A DNA stretch of 64,000 nucleotides from an uncultured Gammaproteobacteria bacterium (GCA_964553245.1 CAZKJM010000001.1:81806-145805), one strand, 5' to 3'. Positions 6,099 to 64,000 are shown, numbered from the stretch's first letter. Notes: generated by a model from the letters alone, not told the origin. A program made the numbers and translations.

Positions 6099-6764
6099 CT
6101 ACAGGGCTCCTTTTCCGGAAATCATTGCCCAAGGAGTTTTAAAAACAATTAAAAAGTCGTAAAAAACTGATCTTTTCTTAACATAATCTGCATCCATTTC
6201 TATACGCTTATCAAAATTAATTTCACTTCTGCCTGAAACTTGCCAATATCCTGTTAACCCAGGTTTTATTGAAAGCACAATTTTTACTGCATCCTTAGTG
6301 TTTGGGTATTTTTTTTGCTGTTCTCTTAGTTCATCCGGATAATATGCTCTTGGACCAACTAAGCTCATATCTCCTTTTAAAATATTGATAAATTGCGGGA
6401 CTTCATCAAGAGAGTGTTTCCTTATAAAATGTCCTACCTTTGTTATTCTTGGATCATCTTTTAATTTGTAACTTCCTCTTCTGTATTGTTCATAATATTT
6501 TGCAAACTTCGGATTATTTCTTAAAATATCGTGCGCGTTAATAATCATCGATCGAAATTTATACATTTTAAATGTTTTTCCGTTTTTACCAACTCTTGGA
6601 GGCGTATCTGCCATAATTGGACCCTTGGAATCAATTAATATTGCTAAAGAAACAATTAATATGATTGGTGAAAAAAATATCAAAAGAGTTGAAGAAAATA
6701 ATACATCCATTAATCTTTTAATAATTTCGTAAAACGTACTTTTTTTTATTTCTTTATATGGCAT
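6099..6764 (-). CDS. polyprenyl-phosphate hexose-1-phosphate transferase (bacterial sugar transferase family, WbaP/WcaJ C-domain-like initiating enzyme)
   Basis: 221 aa with one N-terminal TM helix. Conserved KFRSM...DE(V/L)PQ...GDMSLVGPR motifs of the PGPT family are present. Confidence 0.85.
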   Translation of the reverse strand: MPYKEIKKSTFYEIIKRLMDVLFSSTLLIFFSPIILIVSLAILIDSKGPIMADTPPRVGKNGKTFKMYKFRSMIINAHDILRNNPKFAKYYEQYRRGSYKLKDDPRITKVGHFIRKHSLDEVPQFINILKGDMSLVGPRAYYPDELREQQKKYPNTKDAVKIVLSIKPGLTGYWQVSGRSEINFDKRIEMDADYVKKRSVFYDFLIVFKTPWAMISGKGAL

Positions 6765-6765
6765 A

Positions 6766-7848
6766 TTACGAAAGCTTCTCGTTTGTTGTTCCGTTTAAAC
6801 TCTCTACTAATTTTTTTACTTTAGGGACTGATTTTTTTGGACAAACTAAAATTACATCATCTGTGTTAACCACGAGCATTTGATCAAGATCAATGCCAAC
6901 CACCATTTGATTTGTGTAGTTAAAAATTAAGCTATCCTTACTATCCTCAACCATTACTTTACCTTTAGTAAGGTTATCTTCTTCTTTATCAACCAATGCT
7001 TCTTTTAAAGATTCCCACGCTCCAATATCACTCCATCCCAAATCGCAGCCAATTACATAACCGTCTTTAGGATCAATTTTTTCCAAAATCAAATTATCAA
7101 AAGAGTTTTTTTCAAAATTGGGATAAACCTTATTTAACTCCTGCTGAAAATTATCTTGACCCCAGTATTTTTGAATCTTTAATAATTCTTCGTACATTTC
7201 AGGAGCAAATTTTTTGTATAAAGAAAAAAGGAATTCTGCTGTAGTCCCAAAATATCCGGGATTCCAATAATGCAATTTGCTCTTATGAAAATCTTCTGCT
7301 GTTTTAATATCCGGTCTATAGTGAAAACTTTTAAATCCAAAAACCGAAAGACCATTGGCTTCTTTTACTTTATTACCTTGCTCAATCCAACCTAAATTCT
7401 GACTTGCAAATCTTGAGTCTTGAGCCATAAAAACTATTTTATTATTATCTTTTTTTAAAAGATCGTTTCCTGTAAGGATTACTTTTCTAAATACTTCCTC
7501 ATTTTTTACGAGATGATCGCTCCAGAGAATAAAAAACGGTTCGTTAGGGGAAATTTTTTGAAGCACTGCTGTTACAAGCCCAACAGCTGCACCAACATCA
7601 CGCATTTCAGGTTCGAAAATAAAATTCTGTTCAGGGATATCAGGTAATTGTGAAATTATTAACTCTTTGTATCTTATTCCAGATGAAATAAAGATATCTG
7701 ACGGTTTAAATATCGGATAAACCCTATCGTAGGCAAGTTGCAAAGTTGATTTATCTCCGACAATTTTTTCAAATTGTTTCGGTGTGTTTTTTCTTGATAA
7801 AGGCCAAAGTCTTGTACCAACTCCTCCTGCAAATATTACTACCTTCAT
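6766..7848 (-). CDS. mannose-1-phosphate guanylyltransferase-type sugar-1-phosphate nucleotidyltransferase
   Basis: N-terminal MKVVIFAGGVGTRLWPLSRKNTPKQF (GGxGTRLWPLSR) is typical of ManC/GMP family nucleotidyltransferases. 360 aa. Confidence 0.75.
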   Translation of the reverse strand: MKVVIFAGGVGTRLWPLSRKNTPKQFEKIVGDKSTLQLAYDRVYPIFKPSDIFISSGIRYKELIISQLPDIPEQNFIFEPEMRDVGAAVGLVTAVLQKISPNEPFFILWSDHLVKNEEVFRKVILTGNDLLKKDNNKIVFMAQDSRFASQNLGWIEQGNKVKEANGLSVFGFKSFHYRPDIKTAEDFHKSKLHYWNPGYFGTTAEFLFSLYKKFAPEMYEELLKIQKYWGQDNFQQELNKVYPNFEKNSFDNLILEKIDPKDGYVIGCDLGWSDIGAWESLKEALVDKEEDNLTKGKVMVEDSKDSLIFNYTNQMVVGIDLDQMLVVNTDDVILVCPKKSVPKVKKLVESLNGTTNEKLS

Positions 7849-8948
7849 AATTTTTTAAAATGTCTTATTAATTCCTTTTCTATTAACCTACCTAATTTCT
7901 TTTCAAAATTACCTTCAGAAAACTTTTTAGCGCTAAGCTGTAATAATTTAGTATTATATCTTTTATTATTTACATTTTCCAATACTTTTTTTAAAGAAAA
8001 AGCTGATTGTTCTTTAAAAAATTCTCCCGTTATTCCTTCTTTAATTATATCCAGTGCTCCACCGCCTTTGTATGCAATAACGGGTTTTCCAAAGCTCTGT
8101 GCTTCGGTCATCACTAATCCAAAATCTTCAATTCCGGGAAAAATCAATGCTTTACAATTTTTATAATAAAACGAAAGCTCATCGTCCGTCAATCTGCCCA
8201 AGAATTCAATGTTAGGACCTGCTATTTTTTTAAGATTATTTTCTTCCGAACCTATTCCAACAATTTTTAGAGGGAATTTTAAATAATTAAAAGCCTTGAT
8301 TGCAACATCAATTTTTTTATAACGAACAAGTCTTGAAACAATTAAATAAAAATCCTTGTCTTTTCTAAAAACAGCTTTATTTTTTGTTTTTTTCTTAATC
8401 AAAGTCATCGGAGGATGTATTAAAGATGAATCACGATCATAATATTTCTTAATTCTTTCTTTAACTTCTCTTGAAATTGAAACAAAAGTATCGGGTCTTT
8501 TTGAGGCTATTTTATCCCATCTTCTTAAATAAGAAACAACAGGCTTAGATAAATTTTTAAGCAATGAATTCTTAAAATAGTCTTCATAACCACTCCAAAG
8601 ATATCTAGTCGGTGTTAAGCAATAACAAATATGTAAAGTTTTATCTTTTGTAATAATCCCCTTAGCTGCTTCGCTTGTTACTGATATTACTAAGTCATAA
8701 TCATCAAATCCAAAATTTTCAAAAGCGATTGGCATTAGCGGAGCTAGAATCTCATGTGAGGTTTTTGCATTGGGTATTTTTTGTAAAAAAGACGTTTTTA
8801 CATCAAATTCTTCTGCCCATAAAGCAGTTTTCCTATTATAAACAGATGTGAAAATCGGTGCTTTTGGAAAAATCTTGTGAAGGGAGAGAAGTACTCTTTC
8901 TGCACCTCCCCATTTATTTATTCTGTCGTAAACTAAAGCAACTTTCAT
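7845..8948 (-). CDS. glycosyltransferase family 4 (GT-B, GT1-type C-domain)
   Basis: Motif EDFGLVMTEAQSFGKPVIA (E-x7-E region). 367 aa. Confidence 0.8.
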   Translation of the reverse strand: MKVALVYDRINKWGGAERVLLSLHKIFPKAPIFTSVYNRKTALWAEEFDVKTSFLQKIPNAKTSHEILAPLMPIAFENFGFDDYDLVISVTSEAAKGIITKDKTLHICYCLTPTRYLWSGYEDYFKNSLLKNLSKPVVSYLRRWDKIASKRPDTFVSISREVKERIKKYYDRDSSLIHPPMTLIKKKTKNKAVFRKDKDFYLIVSRLVRYKKIDVAIKAFNYLKFPLKIVGIGSEENNLKKIAGPNIEFLGRLTDDELSFYYKNCKALIFPGIEDFGLVMTEAQSFGKPVIAYKGGGALDIIKEGITGEFFKEQSAFSLKKVLENVNNKRYNTKLLQLSAKKFSEGNFEKKLGRLIEKELIRHFKKL

Positions 8949-10038
8949 AAATCTTAAAGGTTTCTATAGCAGTTTTTTTCCATGAAAATTTAGATGCTCT
9001 TTTATATGCATTTTCAATTTTATTTTTAAAATCCTGTTTTTTCTTTTTGTATACATAAATCATTTTTTCTTCCATATCAAAAATATCATAAGGGTCAAAG
9101 TAAATGGCATCATTTTTGCAGATTTCTTTGACTGATGGGATATTAGAAGCTAAAACTAAGCATTTATTTGAAATTGCTTCTATTACGGGTAAACCGAATC
9201 CTTCCATAAAAGAAGGCATTATTAATGCGATTGCTCCTCTGTATAATTCTTTAAGTTTTTCATCCGTAACTCGTCCTGTTAGAATAACTGATTTAGATAA
9301 TCCATCTTCATTTATTTTATTTTTTATTTTTTTATAAAAGTAATCCTCTTTTCCAACCATAAATAATTTTAGATCTTTAAATTGGTTATTAAGGTTTTTA
9401 AACGCATTTATTAAGCCCTCAAGATTTTTATGTGGGTATGCATTTCCAACATATAAAAAATATCTATCTCTGCTTTCCTTACTAAAAGTTTTACTACTAT
9501 TAACAATTTCAGACCCCTCATGAGTTATATAAATCATATCTTTATTAACTTTTAAGTGACTTATTACCTCCATTCTTGTAGCCTCAGATGGAACAATTAT
9601 TGCAATTGCTTTTTTAGCAATACTTTTAATAACAAATTTATATCCCAGTTTTTTAAATTTATAAATTGGCATAGGCAAAGTCGATGCTTTACCTGTTGAA
9701 TGATGATCTATTATTAAATCGTGAATCGTTACTATATATGGTTTACTGTAAAAAACCGGTACCGAAAAATAAGGAAAATGCATTAAATCTAGATTTTCTT
9801 TATAAATTATTTTAGGAAAAACAAATTGCTCTTTTAAAGAGTGCCAATTAATATCCGCTACTGTTAATTTGAAGTTTTTATTTTTAACATCTTTTTTTAT
9901 AGAAGTCTTGTCACTGCTTTTAATAAATAAAGTATATTCATTTTTTTTATCTATTTTCTGAAGTTCTTTTATTAAATTTCTAGTGTATCTGCCAATGCCA
10001 GTCTGGTTCCAAAATCTTGCATCAATACCAATTTTCAT
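8914..10038 (-). CDS. glycosyltransferase family 4 (GT-B)
   Basis: Motif EGFGLPVIEAISNKCLVLAS. 374 aa. N-terminal MKIGIDARF... GT4 N-domain. Confidence 0.8.
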   Translation of the reverse strand: MKIGIDARFWNQTGIGRYTRNLIKELQKIDKKNEYTLFIKSSDKTSIKKDVKNKNFKLTVADINWHSLKEQFVFPKIIYKENLDLMHFPYFSVPVFYSKPYIVTIHDLIIDHHSTGKASTLPMPIYKFKKLGYKFVIKSIAKKAIAIIVPSEATRMEVISHLKVNKDMIYITHEGSEIVNSSKTFSKESRDRYFLYVGNAYPHKNLEGLINAFKNLNNQFKDLKLFMVGKEDYFYKKIKNKINEDGLSKSVILTGRVTDEKLKELYRGAIALIMPSFMEGFGLPVIEAISNKCLVLASNIPSVKEICKNDAIYFDPYDIFDMEEKMIYVYKKKKQDFKNKIENAYKRASKFSWKKTAIETFKIYESCFSLRQNK

Positions 10039-10084
10039 AAACGAATTATAGCTAAATAAATCCGAGAAGACAATCTATTTTAAA

Positions 10085-10978
10085 TTAAGCACTTAATTTA
10101 GTAAGTTTTTCTTTCAAATTAATTGCAGAAAACATGATCCAATTAATAAAAAATGGGTATTTTTGTTTATAGTTTTTTTTATAAAAAATTCTCATTGCGT
10201 TAAATCTTGCCTTAGACACAATTTCTTTTGTTTTATTATCAGCTGTAGAAATTTCTGATGAAATCTTTTTTATTCCACCAGAAACTCCTTTATAGTGAAG
10301 AATTGCAACATCTGGAACATAATATATTTTCCATCCTTGTTTTTTTAATTGATAACAGAAATCAATATCTTCTCCATAAAAGAAATAGTCTTCGTCCCAC
10401 CAACCTGCTTCACTTCCAGCCTCTCTTTTAACAAGCATAAATGCTCCGGCAAGAGCATCGATTTCGTGAGTTTTATTTAAATCCATATAATTAAGGTTAT
10501 AACCATTGAGAATTTTTAATTTGGGGAATATTTTTGAAAGACCTGAGAAGTGACATAACGAATTCCATGGGGTTGGAAAACCTCTATGAGACGCATCATC
10601 AATTCTCCCATTAACTAAAAGCACTTTACAAGTAGCTGCTCCGGCATCTTCTGTTTTGTTCATAAAATTAATCATACGCTCAATCGTATTCTTATAAATA
10701 ACCGTGTCCGAGTTTAAAAATAGGATGTATTTGCCCTTTGCTTTTTTTAATCCCAAATTATTAGCTTTAGAAAAACCTAGATTCTTATTGCTTCTGATTA
10801 AATTTACTTTAGGAAATTTATCTTTTACCATTTCTACAGAATCATCAGTGGAATTATTGTCTACAACGATTACTTCATAATTTATTTTTCTTGAAATATT
10901 TTCAAAAACTGACTCCAAGCATTTTTTCAAAAAATTGCTTGTATTAAATGAAATAATTATTATAGATAAATCAACCAT
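10085..10978 (-). CDS. glycosyltransferase family 2 (GT-A)
   Basis: N-terminal LSIIIISFNTSNFLKKCLESV...VVDNNSTDDS (DxD-type GT2 signature). Confidence 0.8.
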   Translation of the reverse strand: MVDLSIIIISFNTSNFLKKCLESVFENISRKINYEVIVVDNNSTDDSVEMVKDKFPKVNLIRSNKNLGFSKANNLGLKKAKGKYILFLNSDTVIYKNTIERMINFMNKTEDAGAATCKVLLVNGRIDDASHRGFPTPWNSLCHFSGLSKIFPKLKILNGYNLNYMDLNKTHEIDALAGAFMLVKREAGSEAGWWDEDYFFYGEDIDFCYQLKKQGWKIYYVPDVAILHYKGVSGGIKKISSEISTADNKTKEIVSKARFNAMRIFYKKNYKQKYPFFINWIMFSAINLKEKLTKLSA

Positions 10979-10982
10979 AATT

Positions 10983-12152
10983 TTAAATCGATGCTTTATA
11001 TATATATTCTAATCTCTGCGCAATTTTTTTCCAGTCATATTTATCTTCGATTAATTCTCTTGCATTATTCGTTAGCTTTTCAAACAAATCTTTATTATTT
11101 AATAGGTCAATCAAGCATTTAGAAAATTCATAACTGTCTAATGCTGTTAATACGTGGGTTTTATTTTTTGCTCCAATTCCTTCTACGCCAAGCTCTGTGG
11201 TAACAACTCCAACTCCACTAGCCATTGCTTCAAGAATTTTAAAACTTGTTCCACCACCGATCCTTATTGGAGCAAGTAAAATATCTGTTTTCTTAAATAT
11301 TTCTTCTGTTTCTTCATTGTTGTTATAATCGAAAACTACGTTTTTAAAATCTCGACTTCTAAATGCTTCCGGAATATTTTTTCCAACAATCCATAATTGA
11401 GTATTATCTACTTTTTGTAATACTTTTGGCCAGATATCAAAAAGGATAAACTTTAACGCATCAATATTTTGCACCCATTTAAAATCTCCAATAAAAAGAA
11501 TTTTCTTGTTTTTATTTAAAAAATTTTTTTTATCAAATTTGAATTTTCCGATATCTACACCGTTTGGAATAACTTCTGCATTTTTAATCCCCATTAACGA
11601 CTTTTCTATGTCGGAAACCGCAATAAGTTTTTTTGCCTTTTTCCAAAACTGTTGCTCTTTTATTTTTAACTTATAAACATCCCAATATAAAAATGGCTTA
11701 AGAAAAAAAATCGCCCTGTCGGAAAATCTTTTATAAACTAGGTACTCAACATTATGCTCAACTAAAACTGTTGGCAAATTTGTTTTTGGAAGATTTTGAA
11801 ATACATACGAAGTTTCTATGTGAATAAGATCATATTTTTCATTTTTTAATTCATTTCTAATCTTTTTTCTTAGTAATTTATTCTTATGCCCTGTTATTAA
11901 AAACGGATTTAAAGAAAAAGCGGTTTTTATTATATTTTTAAAGCTCCATTGCTTAAATCTTGGGACAGTTAAAACTTTATCGCAAATTTCTTTGACTTTA
12001 CTTATTTCTTTTTCGTTTTGATTATCTCTTTTTTCACAAATTAAAGTAATTGAGTTTTTTTTTGATAGTTCTTTAATTAAGTTATAAAGCCTAATATGTC
12101 CTCCTGAATAAAGAGGATAAGGTAAAAAAGAAGAAATCATTAATATTCTCAT
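10983..12152 (-). CDS. glycosyltransferase family 4 (GT-B)
   Basis: 389 aa. C-domain with GGTSFKILEAMASGVGVVTT (GT1 motif). Confidence 0.75.
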   Translation of the reverse strand: MRILMISSFLPYPLYSGGHIRLYNLIKELSKKNSITLICEKRDNQNEKEISKVKEICDKVLTVPRFKQWSFKNIIKTAFSLNPFLITGHKNKLLRKKIRNELKNEKYDLIHIETSYVFQNLPKTNLPTVLVEHNVEYLVYKRFSDRAIFFLKPFLYWDVYKLKIKEQQFWKKAKKLIAVSDIEKSLMGIKNAEVIPNGVDIGKFKFDKKNFLNKNKKILFIGDFKWVQNIDALKFILFDIWPKVLQKVDNTQLWIVGKNIPEAFRSRDFKNVVFDYNNNEETEEIFKKTDILLAPIRIGGGTSFKILEAMASGVGVVTTELGVEGIGAKNKTHVLTALDSYEFSKCLIDLLNNKDLFEKLTNNARELIEDKYDWKKIAQRLEYIYKASI

Positions 12153-13618
12153 GGCTTTTCTTTTAAATTAAACAATGCGAAATCCGAGGTTGCTTTTATA
12201 ATTTTATATTCTTTTCCAATTTCTAAATCTTTTTCTGTTGGACTAATGATTGCCAAGTAATCTGCTCCCAGTAAAGACATTTGAGAAAGGGAATTTTGAA
12301 AACTTGCCCAACCTTTTCTTTTTGTCTGATAAAGAAAAGATGTATCTCCATTGTAATTTGCGATTATTTTTGCATCTTTTGGAATTAATTTATCAATTTC
12401 TTCTCCTGCAATAACTATTGAACGATTATTAATATTAAAAAAATCTCTTACAATATACCAACTAAAGAAAAATGTAAACAAAACTATAAGCGCAAATATT
12501 AAATAAGAAATAATTTTGTTTGTTAAATTTTTATTATTTAACAAGAACGAGCTACCTACTCCAAGATAAACAGCAATACTTGGAATTATTAAAATTTGGT
12601 AATAATCATGTTGAACATTTCCTCTTGCTATTACAAATAAATATAATAATGACGACAACGAAAACGAAAATAAAAATAATAAATCATTTTTCTTTTGCCT
12701 TGCGATAAACCCCAATATGAAAAGTCCAATTCCCCAAAATCCTAAAATTAATTTTCCAATTCTTTCTGCAAATATCCAGTAAAAAAAGGATCCTTTAAAT
12801 CGTATATTCCCTCCGTTAAAAAGCCAGTCGCTTGCAGGAATACCTTCTGGGTATTGACTAATCCAAAATCTCCATAAAATAAGCGGAATAATAGAAATAA
12901 CTGCGTAAAGCCATAAATTCCATTTTTTAAGAAAGCTTAAACCAAATTTTTCGTAAGAAAGATATATTAATGGCAGCGTAAAAAATAAGGCATATGGTTT
13001 AACCAAAAAAGCTAAAGTTGTAAATAATAAGCTTAAGATGAACTGATGATTAAAGATTGATAACCTAAGGTCTTTATTAAGCCATTTATCAAAAAAATAA
13101 ATTCCCCCAAGATTTAAGGTAACCATCAATGGATCAGGAAGGATTGTTCTTGAGTAATAAATATTGAATGGCAAAAATAAAAAGAAAAAATACGTCAATA
13201 ATCCAGTCAAGAATCCAAATCTTTTTCTAATAATAAGAAAAAGAAAAAGCCCTGAAAAAACTGAACCAAAAATATTGATCAGTCTTCCCCACTCTTCCAA
13301 GCTTAAAAAATTAAACAAAATAAATCCACCTGCTTGAAGCGCATTAAAAACCGGAAATTCCACAAATCTATATCCTTGAGGATTATTTATTCCTGATGGC
13401 ACATTCGACAAATCGTCAAACCGCGGATGTAAGAAATCAAAACCGTTATTGACAAAATTTCTTGAAACAGATGATGTATCCGCTTGTCTCCATGAATGCC
13501 AATCTGCAATTGGGTTATTAAATCCATAAAATCTTACTAAAAAACCAAGGATGAACAAAATAACCACGGAAATAATTTTATTTTTATTATTTTTGAGCAT
13601 TTTTCTTAACTTCCGCAT
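12149..13618 (-). CDS. polytopic membrane glycosyltransferase, GT-C fold, PMT/ArnT-like variant
   Basis: 489 aa with about 10-12 predicted TM helices. The first extracytoplasmic loop carries an acidic motif (ADWHSWRQADTSSVSRNF...EFPVFNAL) resembling the DE/HPPL region of the GT39/GT83 families. Confidence 0.55.
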   Translation of the reverse strand: MRKLRKMLKNNKNKIISVVILFILGFLVRFYGFNNPIADWHSWRQADTSSVSRNFVNNGFDFLHPRFDDLSNVPSGINNPQGYRFVEFPVFNALQAGGFILFNFLSLEEWGRLINIFGSVFSGLFLFLIIRKRFGFLTGLLTYFFFLFLPFNIYYSRTILPDPLMVTLNLGGIYFFDKWLNKDLRLSIFNHQFILSLLFTTLAFLVKPYALFFTLPLIYLSYEKFGLSFLKKWNLWLYAVISIIPLILWRFWISQYPEGIPASDWLFNGGNIRFKGSFFYWIFAERIGKLILGFWGIGLFILGFIARQKKNDLLFLFSFSLSSLLYLFVIARGNVQHDYYQILIIPSIAVYLGVGSSFLLNNKNLTNKIISYLIFALIVLFTFFFSWYIVRDFFNINNRSIVIAGEEIDKLIPKDAKIIANYNGDTSFLYQTKRKGWASFQNSLSQMSLLGADYLAIISPTEKDLEIGKEYKIIKATSDFALFNLKEKP

Positions 13619-17632: not shown

Positions 17633-17640
17633 TATATAAA

Positions 17641-18195: not shown

Positions 18196-18215
18196 ATATT
18201 TTAAGCTTAATACAT

Positions 18216-19313: not shown

Positions 19314-19317
19314 AATC

Positions 19318-45220: not shown

Positions 45221-45221
45221 A

Positions 45222-56090: not shown

Positions 56091-57277
56091 CTACTTTTTC
56101 CTTTATTCTTAAAATAAAAAATGTATGCTTTTTGAAAAAAGGATATTGCTAGTATATAAAAGAAAGGAATGATTGTTAAGAAATAATTAGTTGAAGAATA
56201 ACCAGTTGATAAAGTCAAAGTATAAACAATAAGCCAAATAAACAAAAACTTTTCTGGATTATTAAGCTTTAATTTTTTCATTAAAAAGTAGACGCCATAA
56301 ATAATGGTAAAAATAACTGAAACTGGCCAAGTAATCATCCATTGAGGATCCTTAATTATTGCATTATTTCCCCACCAAGTGTGCCATCTATTAAAAAGCA
56401 ATAAATCCCAAAAAGAAAACGGAAGAATGAATTTAGACTTGTGATAAGCGAGAATATATTTTTGTATTCCAAAGATTTGAATAATTGAATACCCATCCAT
56501 AATTGTTCTTGTATATGATGCAATTAAGACAAATAATGACAAAGGTAAAGTTATCATAAAAATTCCAAGCTTTTTGCTTAATCCTCTTTTTTCAATAAGT
56601 AAGTATAAAACCATGCAAAAAGTAATTACCGTTCCAGTAACAAAAAATCTTATACTAATAACGCAGCCTAAGAAAAATGAAGTTAGGATAAACCACTTTA
56701 AATATTTTTTATCATCTGCTGCTTTTATAAAAAAATAGAAGGAAAAAAGAATAAACGGGAACTGGATCGGCTCGACCAATGGGATATATTTTAATTTATT
56801 CAAAAATATTGGCTCATTAATAAATATTCCAACTGGTATTAATGAAATTAAAGAATTATTTGTTGCTTGTTTTGTTATAAGAAATATTCCAAGTGTTGAA
56901 AATGCTAAAAGTAAAACTACTATTGTACGTGGATTATCAAATAGAAAAATTGAAAGAGAAATTATGTAATTTCCAAGCGGTGGATGGTCATGAGTTATCA
57001 TTATTGGATTAAGTCCTTTTAAAAAAGCCCCACCTGCAAACGATCTAAATGTCTCATCAGTAATTATTACTGGATTTTTCTTTTGAACAAACTGTGAAGT
57101 GTAATACAGCTTTTTATAATTCTCGTATTGACTATCAAACCCTGGAGAAAAAAGATAATCAGAACTATTTGCTATAATCTCAATTGGTTTTACTAAAATT
57201 ATTAAAAGTAAAAATATAAAAATTAATTTATATCTTTTTTTTATAAATGATTCAAATACAGAAAATGCCTTTTTCAT
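56087..57277 (-). CDS. PMT/ArnT-like GT-C glycosyltransferase (GT39/GT83-type)
   Basis: Loop motif IITDETFRSFAGGAFLKGLNPIMITHDHPPLGNYI (DE and HPPLG motifs). 396 aa with about 10 TM helices. Confidence 0.65.
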   Translation of the reverse strand: MKKAFSVFESFIKKRYKLIFIFLLLIILVKPIEIIANSSDYLFSPGFDSQYENYKKLYYTSQFVQKKNPVIITDETFRSFAGGAFLKGLNPIMITHDHPPLGNYIISLSIFLFDNPRTIVVLLLAFSTLGIFLITKQATNNSLISLIPVGIFINEPIFLNKLKYIPLVEPIQFPFILFSFYFFIKAADDKKYLKWFILTSFFLGCVISIRFFVTGTVITFCMVLYLLIEKRGLSKKLGIFMITLPLSLFVLIASYTRTIMDGYSIIQIFGIQKYILAYHKSKFILPFSFWDLLLFNRWHTWWGNNAIIKDPQWMITWPVSVIFTIIYGVYFLMKKLKLNNPEKFLFIWLIVYTLTLSTGYSSTNYFLTIIPFFYILAISFFQKAYIFYFKNKGKSR

Positions 57278-57292
57278 TATTTAAGGACAGGA

Positions 57293-58270
57293 TTATAAAT
57301 CCTGTTGTTTTTTGTGCCATTGCCATGCGGTTTTAATAATTGTTTCAAGATCTGAATATTTCGGTAAAAAACCAAGTTCTTTATTAATTCTTGACGGATC
57401 AGCAACTAAAATATCTGCATCTCCTGGTCTCCTTGCTGTAATTTCAACTTTAAAATCTGTCCCTGTTACCTTTTTAACCATCTCCACAATTTCCTTGTTT
57501 GAGTATCCTTTTCCCGTTCCAACATTATAAAAATATGAACCAGGGTTTTTTATTAGTTTCTCTATTGCTAAAACATGCGCCTCTACTAGATCTAATACAT
57601 GAATGTAGTCCCTGACACATGTTCCATCCTCGGTTTTATAATCATCACCAAATAACTTAAACGGTTTGTTCTCTAAAACTGCTCTTATTATGTTTGGAAT
57701 AATATGCGTCTCTGGTTCATGCTGCTCTCCCATGGAACCGTCAATCGCTGCTCCGGCAGCATTAAAGTACCTTAAGGCAGCAAAGCTTAATCCTTTTGTT
57801 TTTGCATACCAAGAAAGTATTTTTTCAACCATTAATTTACTTTCTCCATACGGATTTTCAGGAATTTTTTGATGATCTTCTGGAATTGGGGTTTTTACTG
57901 GGTTCCCATAAACCCCAGCTGTGGATGAAAACACAATATTTTTAACCCCATGAATAACTGCTTCATCTATTAAATTTAAAGAACCAAAGGTGTTATTTTG
58001 AAAATACATGTTGGGATTTTCCATTGACTCTCCCATGGAAATGTACCCTGCAAAGTGAATAATTGCATCATACTTCTTGCTAGAAAAAACTTCTTCTAAA
58101 AACTTTTTGTCCAAGACATTGCCTCGTATAAATTCTGCTTTACTGTCTATTACCTCCTTATGTCCTCTTTCAAGACTATCTAGGACGCTAACGCTATCGC
58201 CTTTTTCGACAAGACGTTTAACCATGAAGCTTCCTATGTATCCTGCTCCCCCAGTTACTAAAATATTCAT
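57293..58270 (-). CDS. galE: UDP-glucose 4-epimerase
   Basis: MNILVTGGAGYIGSFMVKRL...FSSTAGVYG...YGESKLMVEKIL is collinear with GalE. 325 aa. Confidence 0.85.
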   Translation of the reverse strand: MNILVTGGAGYIGSFMVKRLVEKGDSVSVLDSLERGHKEVIDSKAEFIRGNVLDKKFLEEVFSSKKYDAIIHFAGYISMGESMENPNMYFQNNTFGSLNLIDEAVIHGVKNIVFSSTAGVYGNPVKTPIPEDHQKIPENPYGESKLMVEKILSWYAKTKGLSFAALRYFNAAGAAIDGSMGEQHEPETHIIPNIIRAVLENKPFKLFGDDYKTEDGTCVRDYIHVLDLVEAHVLAIEKLIKNPGSYFYNVGTGKGYSNKEIVEMVKKVTGTDFKVEITARRPGDADILVADPSRINKELGFLPKYSDLETIIKTAWQWHKKQQDL

Positions 58271-58274: not shown

Positions 58275-60572
58275 CTATTTACCTATCTTTTCCATTATAT
58301 AATTTTTTAAGGAAAAATTGGACCTTAATTCATGTTTTTTTGACCAACCTATTAACTCATCATACACATCTGCCTTATTAACTCCAATCCAAAGCTTTTC
58401 ATTTTTATCAATTTTTATTCCTCTTAAGTCATATATTGGAACATCATATATTGATGTAACCACTGGATAATCAAATCTTGAACAGCCAGTCCACCAGCAA
58501 CCTATCCCAAGAGGAATACCATCTTCATCAGTTAAGTTTCTATTATCCATTAAGATACTAATTGCCATACTTGAGCCATAAACAAGGTATTTGTAATCAT
58601 AAAGCTTAAATTTTGAATCAGGGAACTTTTTTACAATCTGATCAATTTTACTGTTTATAATTTCAACTGGACTTTTATTAACAATTGAGTTTTTAATAGT
58701 AATAAAGTTGCATCCAATAATTATTATTAATAGTATTATTGCTGTGTATTTAAACAAAACCTGTTTTATCTTCTTAAAACTAAAATCATAGATTGAATCA
58801 ATAGACCAAGCAGTAAAAATTAATATAAAAGGTAAAAAATACAGGAGGTATCCTTCTGATCTTTCCCCTTTATAAAACCTTCCAACAATAAAGAATATAA
58901 ATAAAATAATTCCCAAAGTAAATAACGGTTTTGAGATTTTATTTATTATACTTTTATAAATAAATATTAATCCTGCAAGAATAATAACCACTGAAGACAA
59001 AAACTTATATCTCCCAACTACAAAAGACCAATAATCCGGGAAGTAATGCGTTAAGTATAGCGTCCAGCTATTTGGAACATAAAGTCTATATTGTCCTATT
59101 AAAAAATAATCCATTAAATTATTTAAATTAGCGAAGTTTTGAAAATAATCCCAATAAAAAAGTGGAAATGACGGAATTAAAAAGCCTAAAACCATTAAAA
59201 AGAAGCTTAAGATTCTTTTTTTAAAATTAAGACTAGGCACAATAAGTATTGCAGGGAAAAATATTAGCAAGTTTAATGCTTGGTAATGCATGCTTAATGC
59301 AATACCTAAAGCAATTCCCATTAAGAACGCGAAAAAAGGTCTTTTTCTTTTCCAAAGTAAAATAAAAAATAATATTAACAATGCTGAAAAAGTAGAAATA
59401 TAAGTATGAGGCGTAAGCATTATCGACCTAATAACTAATTGAGGGGATGTAGCGGCCAATACCCCAAGAATTATAGCTAGTTTTTTGCCGCTAATTAGTT
59501 GCCCCAAATAGATGAAAACTCCTATTGTTAATACTCCGACTATCCCCGTAAAAAAGAAGGGAGCGCTAATTAAGAAAGGAAATAGTACATAAGAAAGCAT
59601 TATAAAGTAATAAAATACAGGACCAAATACAAAAGGACCCGCAGAACTAAATGGACCAACTAAGGGCAATTCCATTCTTCTTAACGCTTCAAGACCAATT
59701 ATCGCATCTCTTGCATTATCTCCTCCTAGTCCCCACCGATTTGGATAATTATAAAATCTTAAGACTATAGAAATTAGTAATATTGTAAATACTAAAACTT
59801 TATACCAGCCTAAATATTTAAGATATGATGCCGGAAATCTAAGAGCAGAAAACAAAGAGAAAACAAACCCTGCCCAAAGATCCATAAATCCCTTGTGGCG
59901 AATAAAGGTAAGCAAAAACCAATAGAAAGGCTTAATTAAAAGGTAGTCAAACCCAGAAATTATTTTTGAAAAGATATTTTTTTTAGATTCTTTTTGTTCT
60001 ATTTCTTTGGCAAATAACTTGTTATAAGTATTCCATTTACTCAAATAATGCTTAAAGTTTTTATATGGGTAATGCAAAAGTGCTCCTTTAAAATACCCAA
60101 CTTTTCCGCTAACTTCTGCTTGCTCATGAACATCTTTTTGAGGAAGTTTTCCTCTGCCACGTTTATAAAATCTTAAGGTGTAATCCGGATATTGTCCGCC
60201 TTTCATTAAAAATCTATGAATAAACCAATTTTTTCTCGGCATCCAATAGCCGGTAAATTCTTTTTTATCGCTTGTTAAAACGTCCACTATTTCCTCTTTT
60301 AGCTCTTTTGATAAATGCTCATCTGCATCCATTTGAAGTATCCAATCCTTAGTTGCCATATCAATTGCCATTTGTTTATTAATGTGAAAATTTGGTTTAT
60401 TGGTGGTTATCTTTATTTTCGCTTTATATTTTTTTGCTATTTCAACAGTCTTATCAGTCGATGAACCATCAACAATAATTATTTCATCAGCAATATCTTT
60501 TAAACTATTAAGACAAGCTGATAAATTTTTTTCTTCGTTATAAGTTGCTAATACAACAGATAATGTCTTCAT
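58275..60572 (-). CDS. fusion protein: N-terminal GT2 (polyprenyl-phosphate sugar synthase-like) domain plus C-terminal GT-C-like polytopic membrane domain
   Basis: Residues 1 to about 230 carry LSVVLATYNEEKNLSACLNSL...IIIVDGSSTDKT...QMDADE (GT2). The remaining roughly 530 aa have about 12 TM helices, with first loop GGDNARDAIIGLEALRRMELPLVGPFSSAGPFVFGPVFYY, which is similar to the loops of 60569..62203, 62270..63787 and the C-half of 13587..16769. Confidence 0.65.
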   Translation of the reverse strand: MKTLSVVLATYNEEKNLSACLNSLKDIADEIIIVDGSSTDKTVEIAKKYKAKIKITTNKPNFHINKQMAIDMATKDWILQMDADEHLSKELKEEIVDVLTSDKKEFTGYWMPRKNWFIHRFLMKGGQYPDYTLRFYKRGRGKLPQKDVHEQAEVSGKVGYFKGALLHYPYKNFKHYLSKWNTYNKLFAKEIEQKESKKNIFSKIISGFDYLLIKPFYWFLLTFIRHKGFMDLWAGFVFSLFSALRFPASYLKYLGWYKVLVFTILLISIVLRFYNYPNRWGLGGDNARDAIIGLEALRRMELPLVGPFSSAGPFVFGPVFYYFIMLSYVLFPFLISAPFFFTGIVGVLTIGVFIYLGQLISGKKLAIILGVLAATSPQLVIRSIMLTPHTYISTFSALLILFFILLWKRKRPFFAFLMGIALGIALSMHYQALNLLIFFPAILIVPSLNFKKRILSFFLMVLGFLIPSFPLFYWDYFQNFANLNNLMDYFLIGQYRLYVPNSWTLYLTHYFPDYWSFVVGRYKFLSSVVIILAGLIFIYKSIINKISKPLFTLGIILFIFFIVGRFYKGERSEGYLLYFLPFILIFTAWSIDSIYDFSFKKIKQVLFKYTAIILLIIIIGCNFITIKNSIVNKSPVEIINSKIDQIVKKFPDSKFKLYDYKYLVYGSSMAISILMDNRNLTDEDGIPLGIGCWWTGCSRFDYPVVTSIYDVPIYDLRGIKIDKNEKLWIGVNKADVYDELIGWSKKHELRSNFSLKNYIMEKIGK

Positions 60573-62203
60573 CTTTTTATAATTTTATAACTAATAAGAG
60601 AAACAATAAATAATAAACTTATTAAAGAGATTATATCTGAATATGTTCTAACTTTTGTATTTTCAAACACAGCTTCAATTTTATGATTTCTTCCAGTTAC
60701 ATAAAAAGTCATTAGGCCTCTATATTTTGGATCCTGAAACTGAGTTGGTTCTTTTTTGCCGTCAACATAGATTGTCCAATTTGGAAAATATAAAGTATTT
60801 ACTAAAAGTCTTGCGCTATTTATCCCCTCAAATTCATATACTCTATAATTTGTTTTATGAATAACTTCTTTTACTTCTCCCCTTCCTTCAATAACTTGTA
60901 TCGGGGTTGCTGGTTTTTTTTCCATAAACCTAACAGACCAAATTGGTGAACTTTCCCCAGTATCAGTAGTGCTTTCAAAAACTCCAGTATAAAAAGATTC
61001 AGGTTTTATTAAATAACCCTTAGGCTTCATATAGCTTATGCTTAAAAGAAATAATACCGCTATAAGACCAAAAATTACTTTTTTTCTTACTCTTTCTTTT
61101 AAGATAGATACTGTTAATGCTCCAAGAAGTGACATTGAAAAAACAGGAATCGCTAAAAGCCTCCAAGGAAATTGAAAATTTTGCAAAATCATTATTTTTT
61201 CCCATATAAAATTAGACTCAATAAGCATTAAAAATATTCCGACAATGGTGTATATTATTCCAGCTAAAACGAGCCAAAAATTGTTTTTTTTCTTTAGCTT
61301 AAAGTAAAAAAGAGCAATAAATGAAACCAAAAATGATATCCAATGGATTGGACCAAGCTGTACTGTAAATTCACCTGATTGACCATAATTCCAAGGTCCA
61401 TAAATTAATGAATTAAAATCAACAAATCTTCTAATGTATGTCCCTGAAGTTAAAATATTTCTTAATGTATATTTACCTTCAAGCAATGCTGGCAACCAGA
61501 AAAATGCTGATAATAAAAATCCAAGCATAATTGAAGTAAGCGAATAAATTAAATATGATTTTTTAAATTTTAATCTAGACCATAAAAATACTGTATAAAA
61601 AAATAAAAAAGGTAAGAAAATAAGACTTAATGCGTTATGAGCTAAAATTAAAAAAGCCAAAGAAATCGACAGAAGCGAAAAATTAAAAACATTTTGTTTT
61701 TTATACAATTTATATAAAAACAAAAGAATTAATGGTAAAAAGATAAATGCAAAATTTTCTCCAATTGCACCTCTTACGTAAAGGTCAACAAATCTATAGG
61801 GTGCATACACATAAAGAACTCCTCCAAAAATTGCTTCTTCCCTTCTTAGAAACTGAGATAACCATAGATACATAAAATACCCAGATAAAGCGAAACCTAA
61901 AGCAAATACGAGTTTCGTTGAATCTATAAAATTAAATCCTATTAAATGAAAAAGCGAAGCGGTGTACGAAGGTAATGGATATAAAAACATTGGAATTGGA
62001 TGACCATATCCCCAATTAAGATTTCCCGCCCAACGAGGAATAATAATCCCCTCGGATAAACTCTGGTAAAAATTAGCAATTCTTGCAACATGATCTCTAC
62101 CATCATGAGTAAAAGGAAGTCCTTGATTTAATAGTGATATAAGCGGGACTATTAAAACTAAAATAAATACTAAATTTAATATCCAATTTTTAAATCTCTT
62201 CAC
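60569..62203 (-). CDS. GT-C-like polytopic membrane protein with C-terminal soluble domain
   Basis: 544 aa. First loop LPFTHDGRDHVARIANFYQSLSEGIIIPRWAGNLNWGYGHPIPMFLYPL is a paralog pattern shared with the neighbouring genes. The start overlaps the stop of the fusion gene by 4 nt. Confidence 0.5.
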   Translation of the reverse strand: MKRFKNWILNLVFILVLIVPLISLLNQGLPFTHDGRDHVARIANFYQSLSEGIIIPRWAGNLNWGYGHPIPMFLYPLPSYTASLFHLIGFNFIDSTKLVFALGFALSGYFMYLWLSQFLRREEAIFGGVLYVYAPYRFVDLYVRGAIGENFAFIFLPLILLFLYKLYKKQNVFNFSLLSISLAFLILAHNALSLIFLPFLFFYTVFLWSRLKFKKSYLIYSLTSIMLGFLLSAFFWLPALLEGKYTLRNILTSGTYIRRFVDFNSLIYGPWNYGQSGEFTVQLGPIHWISFLVSFIALFYFKLKKKNNFWLVLAGIIYTIVGIFLMLIESNFIWEKIMILQNFQFPWRLLAIPVFSMSLLGALTVSILKERVRKKVIFGLIAVLFLLSISYMKPKGYLIKPESFYTGVFESTTDTGESSPIWSVRFMEKKPATPIQVIEGRGEVKEVIHKTNYRVYEFEGINSARLLVNTLYFPNWTIYVDGKKEPTQFQDPKYRGLMTFYVTGRNHKIEAVFENTKVRTYSDIISLISLLFIVSLISYKIIKR

Positions 62204-62269: not shown

Positions 62270-63787
62270 GTGTTTAAAAAAATTACTAAAAAGCTTTGGT
62301 TACTTGCAATTATTATCCCTTCTGTCTTTTATTTCTGGTATGTTTTTAATGGAGAAGCAATTCTTTCTTCAGATATAGCCAGAGACTTCTTGCTTTATTC
62401 AGAGATTACGCAGAAAAAAATTATCTTAATTGGACCAAAATCTAGCGTTATGGGAATCTTTCATGGTCCTTTATGGTTATATCTAAATTATCCAGCGTAC
62501 GCATTGGGTGGAGGAAATCCAGTTGTTATTGAAGCATTCTGGATATTCCTTACTTTTCTTTTTATATATTCATGTTATTTTGTTGGAAAAAATCTTTTTG
62601 ATAAAAATACAGGTTATTTATTCTCGGCAATGGTAGCGCTATATATGTTTTTTCATATAAATCAATTTTACAATCCTATGGGGGCAATGTTTTTAATACC
62701 AATAAATTTTTATTTTTTTATAAAATACCTACAGACTTATAAGAAAAAATTTATCATTGCATACTTTTTGCTTTTAGGACTTATTATCCAATTTGAACTT
62801 GCGATTGGAATTCCGTTTCTAATCCTTTCTATTCTTTATTTATTCATAAAGCTAATAAGATCAAAATATAGAAAACACCTTTTAGCAATTTTTCTAGTAA
62901 TGATTCCTCTATTAAACTATGTTGTTTTTGATATAAGGCACGAGTTTCTTTTAACAAACTCTATTCTTCGTTATCTTTCCCCTGAGAGCGGAGATTCAAT
63001 TAAATACAACTATCTATATATGCTTTATGACCGCCTTAAGTTAATGATTACAAATGTAGAAATACTAAGATCTGACCCAGGAAATAGAAATTTATTAACG
63101 GGACTTATTTTTATTTTCTTTTTAGTTTTGCAATTTAGAAATAAAAAATATAAACAAATTTACTTTCTGTTTTTGTACTTTTATGTCGGTTTTTATGCTT
63201 TAACATTTATAAATAAAGGGCCAGTTTTATATTTTTATATGTTCCCGCTTTTTCCTTTTGTGTTCTTAATTTTTTCATCTTTTATCACATCTAAATATAA
63301 AAGGGTGTTTTTAGCTATTTTTATTATCGTTTACTGCATAAATCTAACTACCTTATTTAAGGATATTAAGATTTTTACAAATACATACTTAGGCAAATCT
63401 GAAACTTCGTGGAAATTTTTATCCACAATGGCAAATAGTCTCTATCAGGGGCCTGAGGAAGGATTTGGGTATTTTGTCTATACTCCTGACATCATTGCGT
63501 ATGGACCAAAATATGCATTATTTTACGAAGAAAAAAGGCATAAAAACAAAAAACCAGTATACTTTGAAAAGAAAAAAATAACCTATATCGTAGTTGCGCC
63601 TCCCGCCAAGGATAATCCGTATCTTTCTTATGAATGGTGGAAAGAACAAAGATTAAATATAAAAAAAGACCCCATAAAAACAATAACTTTTTCAAATGGA
63701 TACAGGATTGAAAAATATGAATTGAATAACCGAGAAGTAAGTGAATCTTTTGATAAAGGAATAGATCCTGGACTTTCTTTTAGATAA
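62270..63787 (+). CDS. GT-C-like polytopic membrane protein (paralog of the domain in 58275..60572)
   Basis: 505 aa, GTG start, about 12 TM helices. First loop SSDIARDFLLYSEI...GIFHGPLWLYL. Confidence 0.5.
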   Translation: MFKKITKKLWLLAIIIPSVFYFWYVFNGEAILSSDIARDFLLYSEITQKKIILIGPKSSVMGIFHGPLWLYLNYPAYALGGGNPVVIEAFWIFLTFLFIYSCYFVGKNLFDKNTGYLFSAMVALYMFFHINQFYNPMGAMFLIPINFYFFIKYLQTYKKKFIIAYFLLLGLIIQFELAIGIPFLILSILYLFIKLIRSKYRKHLLAIFLVMIPLLNYVVFDIRHEFLLTNSILRYLSPESGDSIKYNYLYMLYDRLKLMITNVEILRSDPGNRNLLTGLIFIFFLVLQFRNKKYKQIYFLFLYFYVGFYALTFINKGPVLYFYMFPLFPFVFLIFSSFITSKYKRVFLAIFIIVYCINLTTLFKDIKIFTNTYLGKSETSWKFLSTMANSLYQGPEEGFGYFVYTPDIIAYGPKYALFYEEKRHKNKKPVYFEKKKITYIVVAPPAKDNPYLSYEWWKEQRLNIKKDPIKTITFSNGYRIEKYELNNREVSESFDKGIDPGLSFR

Positions 63788-63830
63788 AATAATAAAATTA
63801 TAGATTTTTTTGCGATACTTTTAAAATTAT

Positions 63831-64000
63831 TTATTTCTTTAAAAATGCCAAGAGTAAAAGACCAATAAAGCCAAGACAACTTATAAAAACGGCTAAGTAA
63901 AAATATGAGGGAAGATAATTAAATTCAATTGTTGATTCACCTTTTGGAACAATGATTGCCCTAAAATTATAATTAGCTTTATAAATTTTAACATCTTTTC
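63831..64000 (-). CDS. partial gene (C-terminal 56 aa; continues past window end): C-terminal soluble domain plus terminal TM anchor, like the C-termini of 22112..24154 and 24471..27893
   Basis: Reverse-complement frame gives ...KDVKIYKANYNFRAIIVPKGESTIEFNYLPSYFYLAVFISCLGFIGLLLLAFLKK* with a TAA stop at 63833-63831. It is not the 63628..63879 ORF in the supplied track. Confidence 0.4.
   Translation of the reverse strand, partial: KDVKIYKANYNFRAIIVPKGESTIEFNYLPSYFYLAVFISCLGFIGLLLLAFLKK

Follow-up and report, generated by a model that had tools for sequence, protein, structure and literature searches.

What does a bacterium make from a locus in which nearly every gene is glycan-related and large membrane glycosyltransferases (GTs) of the GT-C type recur throughout? 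The question was raised by a sequence-only reading of a 64,000-nucleotide (nt) stretch recorded under an uncultured Gammaproteobacteria bacterium (GCA_964553245.1 CAZKJM010000001.1:81806-145805), here called the window, which was taken to hold one surface-glycan super-locus of ~58 kb. All 54 open reading frames (ORFs) of the window were scanned against Pfam and NCBIfam. The glycan region extends over at least 70 kb and consists of a conserved core operon joined to a variable GT-C array, with at least 17 GT-C-type genes in ~70 kb. The locus is composite, a proximal class-wide core operon being followed by a distal part that is modular and variable. The very large size proposed earlier was borne out, whereas the single unit was not: the core begins at 4107 and the distal part is a mosaic of cassettes. 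Genes are named below by their first coordinate.

From 6099 to the window end, ~45 of 48 ORFs belonged to glycan-related families in Pfam and NCBIfam, as had been claimed. The G+C content of the window is ~29%, nearly all genes lie on the minus strand, and the coding density from 6099 to 64000 is ~99%. Overlaps were found at 26 of the 41 same-strand junctions, 17 of them of exactly 4 nt, and only five gaps exceeded 20 nt, consistent with the tight operon packing noted before. The GT4 enzymes comprise six complete genes (7845, 8914, 10983, 18216, 51286 and 55035) and one stand-alone N-domain (19318), in line with the earlier count of at least seven if the N-domain is included. The count of six GT2s plus four DPM1-like GT2s was too high; eight GT2 domains are present (10085, 16766, 21165, 27890, 45222, 47634, 52395 and the N-domain of 58275).

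The closest named homologs of the window proteins come from Candidatus Levybacteria/Levyibacteriota, followed by Roizman-, Gottesman- and Woesebacteria. Judged from this pattern in the genome context, the host is a member of Candidatus Levybacteria, in the Microgenomatia within Patescibacteria (candidate phyla radiation, CPR). The layout, as stated in the earlier view, is not that of a standard O-antigen or capsule locus. Many GTDB species-representative records with the Levybacteria-type operon (loci L002-L081) are likewise titled 'uncultured Gammaproteobacteria bacterium', and these titles appear to be a submission-level mislabel. Look-ups by exact sequence placed the window on several contigs from metagenomes, among them ERZ27257500 k141_7794 in ENA (129 kb), one of 78 kb in Logan, and others of at most 0.56 Mb. 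Since the same genes stand on contigs of several independent assemblies, an assembly artefact was ruled out as the cause of the arrangement.

The core operon and its fusion protein

Synteny was examined in 80 related loci, covering 10 kb on each side of the 13587 homolog, in which ORFs were called and matched to the window proteins. The core genes are as follows.

4107..6056, minus strand: DUF4012 single-pass membrane protein, 649 aa (Pfam DUF4012, 1.8e-21)
6099..6764, minus strand: initiating phosphoglycosyltransferase (PGT), small monotopic, PglC-like, 221 aa, one transmembrane (TM) helix (Pfam Bac_transf, 2.3e-60)
6766..12152, minus strand: ManC-like NDP-sugar pyrophosphorylase (6766), GT4 (7845), GT4 (8914), GT2 (10085) and GT4 (10983) (Pfam NTP_transferase with ManC beta-helix, Glycos_transf_1, Glyco_transf_4, Glycos_transf_2)
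12149..13618, minus strand: PMT_2-type GT-C, 489 aa, at least 9 TM helices (Pfam PMT_2, 1.6e-6, 28.9 bits against a cutoff of 26.1)
13587..16769, minus strand: 1060-aa fusion, N-half (~1-547) of predicted WaaL/Wzy fold and C-half (~560-1060) of predicted PMT-like GT-C fold
16766..19851, minus strand: GT2 (16766), hexapeptide acyltransferase (17641), GT4 (18216) and stand-alone GT4 N-domain (19318) (Pfam)

The gene order recO-DUF4012-PGT-ManC-GT4-GT4-GT2-GT4-PMT_2-1060-aa protein-GT2-acyltransferase-GT4-GT4 N-domain was kept in all of the inspected loci, which range from Levybacteria to Gottesmanbacteria. Each core gene was found in 45-80 of the 80 loci with a median identity of 42-72%, and many of the absences were contig ends. 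The PGT, whose earlier assignment as the initiating transferase is supported by its monotopic Bac_transf domain, had syntenic homologs in 55 loci (median identity 72%), each of the genes of 6766-12152 in 57-72, 12149 in 73, and the genes of 16766-19851 in 62-73. The DUF4012 protein, which lies outside the interval described before, is the terminal conserved gene of the operon (45 loci, median identity 55%); its family is enriched in CPR and Gram-positive bacteria and has been linked to exopolysaccharide (EPS) clusters (PMC6744442). When one genome per GTDB species was scanned, the 13587 family was found in at least 571 Microgenomatia species genomes. Given the colinearity and the presence across the sampled loci, the proximal 16-20 kb is a core operon of the whole class, often extended to 24154, rather than an antigen island that varies between strains.

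The gene that tells most about the locus is 13587; the homologs of its 1060-aa product fall into more than 120 clusters and show 55-75% identity along their entire length. The AlphaFold model (pLDDT 77, pTM 0.76) showed a two-domain membrane protein. The N-half was predicted to adopt a WaaL-type fold with 12 TM helices and a large loop before the last three, and this outer loop carries a beta-rich insert of ~140 residues (~285-425). PDB sequence searches with 13587 alone gave nothing meaningful, and only the fold comparison worked. Matches to Wzy_C at E≤0.1 were found in 20 of 30 family members (best 8.9e-5), and two homologs had a precomputed PF04932 annotation. Among 81 aligned sequences many Arg, Glu and His residues were invariant, and the invariant positions of the N-half include R181, R236, R282, R430, D460, N461, R465 and E469. 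The 'DNN' at 460-462 presumably sits where canonical ligases have 'HN', which we take only as a lead.

For the C-half, the closest GT-C fold was Pmt4, and its comparison with a profile of bona fide PMT/PMT_2 paralogs gave a probability of 96.5% (E 7.5e-10). D592/D593, right after the first TM helix of the C-half, were invariant in 81/81 sequences. On the predicted structure, 13587 is a WaaL/Wzy-superfamily domain fused to a GT-C. The modelled fold of the N-half would be compatible with ligation, polymerisation or protein O-glycosylation, which the fold alone cannot separate. Because of this domain, the earlier statement that no Wzy is evident does not hold, while its other half, concerning Wzz and an ABC exporter, does. 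The Wzx/Wzy-type parts of the window are then the PGT (6099), the Wzx-type flippase (53726) and, as the only Wzy-like candidate, the N-half of 13587.

The neighbouring gene 12149 encodes the second GT-C of the core. Its family profile matched the PMT/PMT_2 paralog profile at 98.2%, and two first-loop residues, D39 and D47, were invariant in 73/73 sequences.

Several other features were observed at the edges of the core. The 177-aa GT4 N-domain (19318-19851, minus strand) is a separate gene adjoining a complete GT4 in 62 of the 80 related loci, and in two Levybacteria a Fic-domain gene stands between the two (L082 19662-21259; L086 15708-17312). The core operon is separated from the ArnC-like gene by a soluble 317-aa ORF at 19918-20871 (plus strand), which had no Pfam or NCBIfam match, and a 316-aa ORF with no Pfam match occupies its position in L082 and L086. 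Upstream of the glycan locus lie mraW, a class II tRNA synthetase gene and recO. An apparent 595-bp gap upstream of mraW (137-1030) contains a 146-aa ORF (1020-1460, minus strand), a putative MraZ by its sequence pattern. No tRNA or Rfam RNA was found in the window.

The distal GT-C array and its sugar cassettes

The distal region is a mosaic of a nonulosonic acid (NulO) pathway, a CDP-dideoxyhexose pathway, thiamine pyrophosphate (TPP)-enzyme and transketolase genes, and GT2 plus GT-C modules.

20887..24154, minus strand: semi-conserved module of a 76-aa TM protein (20887), an ArnC/GtrB-like GT (21165) and a 680-aa AftD/YfhO/PTPS_related-type GT-C (22112)
24151..27893, minus strand: 107-aa TM protein (24151) and 1140-aa GT-C (24471) (AF2 model, Foldseek)
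27890..28897, minus strand: GT2 glycosyltransferase (Pfam Glycos_transf_2, 8.4e-29)
28894..36711, minus strand: nonulosonic-acid-type cassette (Pfam, NCBIfam)
36716..40223, minus strand: acetolactate-synthase-like TPP enzyme (36716) and split transketolase (38494, 39411)
40240..42324, minus strand: 694-aa, 13-TM protein, probable GtrC-like/GT-C transferase (profile and context)
42377..43447, minus strand: NAD-dependent sugar epimerase/reductase (Pfam Epimerase, 4.3e-43; GDP-L-fucose synthase-like, 7.5e-40)
43478..45220, plus strand: 580-aa polytopic protein, at least 9 TM helices, possible GT-C, with the weakest evidence of all candidates
45222..49950: DPM1/ArnC-like GT2 (45222), CDP-glucose 4,6-dehydratase-like (45923), glucose-1-phosphate cytidylyltransferase-like (46861), GT2 (47634) and RfbH-like dehydrase (48700, plus strand)
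49958..53689, minus strand: PMT_2 GT-C (49958), GT4 (51286), DPMS-like GT2 (52395) and RmlC-like epimerase (53132)
53726..58270, minus strand: Wzx-type flippase (53726), GT4 (55035), PMT_2 GT-C (56087) and GalE (57293) (Pfam)
58275..60572, minus strand: 765-aa fusion of a GmaR/SunS-like GT2 (1-~240) and a PMT_2 GT-C (~250-765) (Pfam)
60569..62203, minus strand: PTPS_related-type GT-C, 544 aa, with a C-terminal TM segment (Pfam PTPS_related, 2.5e-11)
62270..63787, plus strand: 505-aa GT-C (hhalign 92.3% to the 22112 family)
63829..64000, minus strand: C-terminal end of a 779-aa YfhO-family GT-C running off the window (precomputed Pfam YfhO on the overlapping locus L085)

Core and distal parts together contain 12 polytopic proteins with 7-22 TM segments each by hydropathy scan, all of which had been proposed to be GT-Cs (11-12 in the earlier count). 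Ten are supported by Pfam, fold or profile evidence: 12149, the C-half of 13587, 22112, 24471, 49958, 56087, 58275, 60569, 62270 and the YfhO end fragment. The identity of these ten as transporters, which the sequence-only reading had named as the outcome that would overturn it, was rejected, as none looks like a transporter. Five candidates scored above the cutoff of curated GT-C Pfam models. Four of them matched PMT_2 (cutoff 26.1 bits), namely 12149 (28.9), 49958 (47.5 bits, 2.9e-12), 56087 (38.1 bits, 2.3e-9) and the C-part of 58275 (27.6 bits, 3.8e-6), and 60569 matched PTPS_related (43.2 bits against 26.4). In profile comparisons, 49958 matched the 12149 family at 98.2%, the GT-C part of 58275 matched the PMT paralog profile at 91.9%, and 60569 matched the 22112 family at 99%. 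The 22112 and 24471 families matched each other at 99.7% by hhalign. The translated tail of the 63829 fragment ends in a TM helix.

The AF2 model of 24471, built from a 35-sequence alignment (pLDDT 82), had mycobacterial AftD (6w98) as its top Foldseek match (E 3.1e-11, TM-scores 0.44/0.39), with ArnT (5ezm) at 0.018. Outside the membrane the model shows a large region of beta-sandwich and coiled coil, and the chain ends in a C-terminal TM anchor; 24471 is thus modelled as an AftD-like GT-C. None of the polytopic proteins received a useful name from NCBIfam, where the matches were weak or spurious (MmpA 2e-5 for 22112; archaeo_STT3 4e-4 for 49958), and PDB sequence searches with the family profiles A1-A4 gave nothing meaningful. 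An acidic residue shortly after the first TM helix (TM1) was conserved in the aligned GT-C families (D32 of 22112 in 29/29 sequences; D36 of 24471 at ~90%) and was seen in single sequences only for the other candidates; it is a low-information feature. The GT-C candidates presumably use polyprenyl-phosphate-linked sugar donors.

The two remaining polytopic proteins, 40240 and 43478, are probably GT-Cs as judged from their profiles. It is rather improbable that they, and perhaps 62270, are instead transporters, permeases or polymerases of another fold. Such an identity would fit the lack of any Pfam or PDB sequence match for 40240 and 43478 (for 43478, no GT-C Pfam model matched in 42 family members scanned), profile probabilities of only 55-81%, and a single JGI record that names a 40240 homolog 'DMT-like permease'. 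The 40240 family matched the C-half of 13587 at 70.5% and the 22112 family at 80.8%, and the 43478 family (313 representative homologs) matched the 40240 family at 55% and the 62270 pair at 66%. However, LamG or TPR domains on the extracytoplasmic side are frequent fusion partners of 40240 homologs, and in L083 and L084 a GT2 gene and a GtrA_DPMS_TM gene immediately precede the homolog, which gives the classical GtrB-GtrA-GtrC order. Both families also keep an acidic residue just after TM1, D43 being invariant in the 43478 family and E66 and E69 ~90% conserved in the 40240 family, and one 43478 homolog has the UniRef name 'RgtA/B/C/D-like'. As for 62270, it matched the full-length 502-aa paralog x13898 just beyond the window (blastp 1.4e-18), which in turn matched the PMT_2 domains of 58275 and 49958 (7.6e-7), besides its match to the 22112 family. 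A GT-C identity is therefore preferred for all three. Three GT-C-like families (24471, 40240 and 43478) have no Pfam model of their own and could found new CAZy families.

The enzymes proposed to supply lipid-linked donors were described before as four DPM1/GtrB-like GT2s, and three of the four were supported as candidates by PDB matches. The protein 21165 matched ArnC (2.9e-46 over residues 8-295), GtrB (2.9e-30) and DPMS (2.7e-16), with a DAD motif at 97-99 and C-terminal TM helices at 240-258 and 271-289. By its sequence it is clearly a member of the ArnC/GtrB/DPMS branch; it is not an ArnC ortholog, since it scored only 184 bits against the NCBIfam ArnC equivalog cutoff of 529 (4.6e-54). 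The closest PDB entries were ArnC (1.9e-9) and DPMS (4.8e-8) for 45222, which has a DSD motif, and DPMS (5mlz, 1.3e-15) for 52395; neither protein has TM helices. The N-domain of 58275 (Pfam Glycos_transf_2, 4.8e-23) matched GmaR (2.2e-14) and SunS (4.5e-13) and DPMS only at 3.3e-4, and it is classed here with these protein/peptide glycosyltransferases and not as DPM1-like. In 58275 a cytoplasmic GT2 is fused to an outward-facing GT-C. Lack of the DxD or polyprenyl-binding features had been named as the other outcome damaging to the earlier view; DAD and DSD are present in 21165 and 45222, the aligned site is altered in 52395, and of these three only 21165 has TM helices.

A single Wzx flippase had been reported, and 53726 indeed matched Polysacc_synt_3 (2.1e-13) and Polysacc_synt, both above cutoff; its neighbour 55035 matched Glycos_transf_1. 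The small TM proteins at 20887-21117 (minus strand, 76 aa) and 24151-24474 (minus strand, 107 aa) each lie in between GT2 and GT-C genes, and a 119-aa ORF (L086 9417-9776) occupies the same position in a related locus. Neither of the two had a Pfam match or a GtrA, GacJ or SMR family match, and they could be unrecognised flippase or activator subunits.

The NulO cassette encodes a PseB/FnlA-like dehydratase, an epimerase, NeuC, a NeuB-like synthase, an FkbM methyltransferase, a short-chain dehydrogenase/reductase, a GFO/IDH/MocA oxidoreductase and a second epimerase. The NCBIfam scores were 394 bits for NeuC (cutoff 236), 364 for NeuB (cutoff 400) and 305 for PseB, and no CMP-sugar synthetase (CTP_transf_3) was recognisable anywhere in the window. 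The genes at 36716-40223 carry TPP_enzyme N/M/C and Transketolase N, pyr and C domains in Pfam (NCBIfam acolac_lg 386 bits, below cutoff) and probably make a branched or extended sugar. All members of the CDP-hexose set were below their NCBIfam cutoffs (G1P_cyt_trans 273 bits, CDP_4_6_dhtase 216, RfbH 346), and GalE scored 413 bits against a cutoff of 262. These rare-sugar cassettes indicate a chemically elaborate product. In otherwise unrelated loci, a ~595-aa acetolactate-synthase-like TPP enzyme and a ~295-aa epimerase (35818-38497 in the window) are paired beside 40240-family genes (L083 2948-5633, L084 1791-4476, L087 4217-6902), and one such locus also encodes AglB/STT3. This suggests that TPP enzyme, epimerase and 40240-family protein are kept together as a cassette that makes and transfers an unusual sugar, possibly one with a branched chain.

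The conservation of the distal part differs from module to module. The module of 20887-24154 comes after the core in 28-36 of the 80 loci, the figure for the ArnC-like gene and 22112 being ~30-36. In L082 and L086 the block GT2-24471 homolog-small TM ORF-22112 homolog-ArnC-like GT2 and the split transketolase are kept. The whole NulO/TPP cassette (28.9-38.5 kb in the window) is absent from L082, a related Levybacteria locus with readable upstream genes, and the distal part is therefore modular. This modularity, the rarity of the 24471 family (only 38 homolog clusters, 32-44% identity) and the general hypervariability of surface-glycan genes in aquatic bacteria (10.1101/2022.03.23.485478) could be taken to mean that the whole locus is an ordinary strain-variable Wzx/Wzy O-antigen- or capsule-type island, with the GT-Cs as serotype-converting accessories that have no conserved role. 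We consider this very unlikely. The proximal 16 kb keeps one set of 14 genes in one order, at the median identities given above, across the Microgenomatia species that carry the family, the host is a CPR bacterium for which a Gram-positive-like envelope has been suggested (PMC6744442), and at least 17 GT-C-type genes in ~70 kb lie far outside the range of Gtr-type add-ons.

A paralogous expansion of GT-Cs had also been proposed for the window. All-vs-all blastp of the polytopic proteins gave a best E of 5e-4, and a recent paralogous expansion within the window was rejected; the GT-Cs of the window belong to at least 4-5 ancient, mutually very divergent families. By sequence comparison, true tandem duplication sits just outside. 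The locus L085 overlaps the window from 52270, and its gene 11562-13901 encodes the 779-aa YfhO protein. Past the window end, L085 11562-21518 encodes this YfhO protein, the 502-aa paralog of 62270, four tandem PMT/PMT_2 genes and a methyltransferase. The four tandem paralogs (546-560 aa) are 26-37% identical to each other by blastp and are interrupted by the methyltransferase gene, and several of the downstream paralogs match Pfam PMT itself. The GT-C array thus continues for at least 10 kb past the window, its end not being reached at +10 kb, and therefore the earlier GT-C count is, if anything, an underestimate.

A proposed assembly pathway

We propose that the core operon assembles a glycan on undecaprenyl phosphate (Und-P) and that the distal GT-C modules decorate, extend or attach the exported glycan outside the membrane, and we regard this as the probable reading of the locus. 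The PGT and the cytoplasmic GT4 and GT2 enzymes would build an oligosaccharide on Und-P at the cytoplasmic face, the parts being the PglC-like PGT, the ManC-like nucleotide-sugar supplier, three to four GT4s, two GT2s and the acyltransferase. A flippase would then export the lipid-linked oligosaccharide, 53726 being the only Wzx recognised. Outside, the WaaL/Wzy-fold half of 13587 would transfer or polymerise the undecaprenyl-diphosphate-linked glycan en bloc, and its PMT-like half, together with 12149, would add sugars from polyprenyl-monophosphate donors. The distal extension, from ~24.5 kb to at least 10 kb past the window, would supply NulO, a CDP-3,6-dideoxyhexose type sugar and probably a TPP-dependent sugar. 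The GT2s 21165, 45222 and 52395 would make polyprenyl-monophosphate sugars, with which the GT-Cs may add, extend or attach sugars outside the membrane; the putative pairs are 21165 with 22112 and 24471, 45222 with 40240 and 43478, and 52395 with 49958. Such outer steps would work much as in Gtr, CsbB/YfhO and GacI/L systems, and they have precedents in Gtr-type three-component glycosylation (PMC11127046) and in the lactococcal wall polysaccharide pathway (PMC10821137). While the family and fold assignments, the synteny and the conservation are shown by the analysis, we infer which donors are used, in what order the steps run and which flippase moves the monophosphate donors. Candidate acceptors are an S-layer or pilin protein, a polymer linked to the wall, and a lipoglycan. 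Since the GT-Cs adjoin polyprenyl-phosphate sugar synthase-like GT2s, extensive extracytoplasmic glycosylation, as proposed before, is the natural expectation.

Several observations weigh against this pathway. The GT2-to-GT-C pairings are by adjacency only. The Wzy_C score of 13587 is below the gathering threshold (15.5 bits against 31.7, E 0.015). The aligned DxD site of 52395 is a non-canonical DAG, with a DLD three residues later, and the GT2 domain of 58275 falls outside the DPM1-like group. No window ORF matched a GtrA_DPMS_TM, SMR or MATE flippase for polyprenyl-phosphate sugars, and no chain-length regulator (Wzz/PCP), LCP ligase or ABC exporter was found in the window. The GT-C assignments of 40240 and 43478 depend on the 55-81% profile probabilities and context, only a few relatives document how far the distal region varies, and our literature search found no biochemical or glycan-structure data for any CPR bacterium.

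The same genes could instead form mainly a general protein O-glycosylation machine, in which the WaaL half of 13587 is a PglL/PilO/WsaB-type O-oligosaccharyltransferase (O-OTase) that moves the undecaprenyl-diphosphate-linked glycan onto an S-layer protein or type IV pilins, and in which the PMT/PMT_2 enzymes, acting like protein O-mannosyltransferases, attach one sugar at a time to Ser/Thr residues in secreted proteins. The N-half of 13587 matches the Wzy_C/WaaL superfamily, to which O-OTases also belong, the closest GT-C fold to this protein is Pmt4, several of the downstream paralogs match Pfam PMT, and GmaR and SunS, the nearest solved relatives of the 58275 GT2 domain, act on proteins or peptides. 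CPR cells have also been reported to depend on pili and surface proteins (PMC6744442). However, no S-layer protein or pilin acceptor gene is present in the window, the fold cannot separate a ligase or polymerase from an O-OTase, and GT-Cs of the AftD, YfhO and PTPS_related types (22112, 24471, 60569 and the YfhO protein) are typical of polysaccharide or teichoic-acid modification and not of protein glycosylation. We consider this alternative serious but somewhat unlikely and retain the assembly of an Und-P-linked glycan that is modified outside the membrane.

CPR/Patescibacteria represent a huge, almost uncultured bacterial diversity, whose envelopes and host-contact surfaces are chemically essentially uncharacterised. 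That a reduced genome keeps a 16-kb glycan operon at 42-72% identity class-wide, together with at least 17 GT-Cs, suggests a central surface glycoconjugate. As a tentative proposal, the 14-gene operon may make an undescribed, class-defining and probably essential envelope glycoconjugate, or equally may perform general O-glycosylation for the S-layer or pili, and the array of at least 17 GT-Cs may be a combinatorial glycan-writing region that diversifies the surface. If this is true, the varied surface would help these ultra-small and probably episymbiotic bacteria to attach to hosts and to evade phages, and the glycan region would take up roughly 5-7% of the genome by our estimate. The 1060-aa WaaL-fold/GT-C fusion provides a clean marker gene and a concrete target for structural and biochemical work, and also for glycoproteomics of enrichments.

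Comparison with known systems

Searches of the literature on GT-Cs, glycosyltransferases, O-antigen ligases and mannosyltransferases of CPR/Patescibacteria returned no description of the 14-gene operon, only a general remark linking DUF4012 to EPS. Nor did these searches return an account of the WaaL-fold/GT-C fusion and its operon as conserved in Microgenomatia, of the GT-C density, or of the three GT-C-like families that have no Pfam model. All parts come from known superfamilies and follow a known logic, and the locus extends known principles.

Three-component Gtr-type glycosylation consists of a GtrB/CsbB/GacI-type synthase, a flippase and a GT-C such as GtrC, YfhO, GacL or GT136 (PMC11127046, PMC8035078). 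Similarly, the ArnC/GtrB/DPMS-like GT2s 21165, 45222 and 52395 adjoin GT-C genes in the window, YfhO and PTPS_related types are present in the array, and the 40240 homolog stands elsewhere in GT2-GtrA-X order. The differences are that no GtrA, SMR or MATE flippase is recognisable in the window, that at least 17 GT-Cs are found against three candidate synthases, two of which have no TM helices, and that one giant operon array takes the place of small accessory cassettes.

In the lactococcal wall polysaccharide pathway, GT-C enzymes not only add single sugars but polymerise and ligate C55-P-linked glycans outside the membrane (PMC10821137). The lactococcal/streptococcal dual-chain systems for rhamnose-rich wall polysaccharides (WpsA/B, the flippase WpsG, the GT-C polymerase and ligase WpsH/I/J; GacI-L) resemble the present locus in the Gram-positive-like envelope reported for the host group, in a Wzx-type flippase and in a conserved backbone part joined to a variable part. 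Unlike them, it has no rhamnan genes, no ABC transporter and no recognised GacJ/WpsB-type activator, and it combines PglC-like initiation, with a diphosphate-linked intermediate, and a WaaL-fold domain.

With the WaaL/Wzy/PglL/WsaB superfamily (Wzy_C; PDB 7tpg, 7tpj), the modelled N-half of 13587 shares the number of 12 TM helices and the position of the large loop, ahead of the final three, and the sub-threshold Wzy_C matches recur across its family. It differs in scoring below the gathering threshold, in its beta-rich insert and in being fused to a PMT-like GT-C, and no lipid A-core acceptor is expected in a CPR bacterium.

The mycobacterial arabinogalactan and lipoarabinomannan set (EmbA-C, AftA-D, PimE, Mpt enzymes and Pmt, using decaprenyl-phosphate sugars) also has many GT-C families working in series on one envelope glycan, and 24471 shares with it a predicted AftD-like fold with extracytoplasmic carbohydrate-binding-type beta-sandwiches. 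No decaprenyl-phosphoryl-arabinose (DPA) or DprE pathway was found here, and the identity to the mycobacterial enzymes is ~8-10%. The mycobacterial GT-C genes are scattered over a genome of ~4.4 Mb, whereas here a comparable number is gathered in ~70 kb of a genome that is probably ~1 Mb in size. The GT-C density of this locus rivals the whole complement of Mycobacterium tuberculosis, but in contiguous form.

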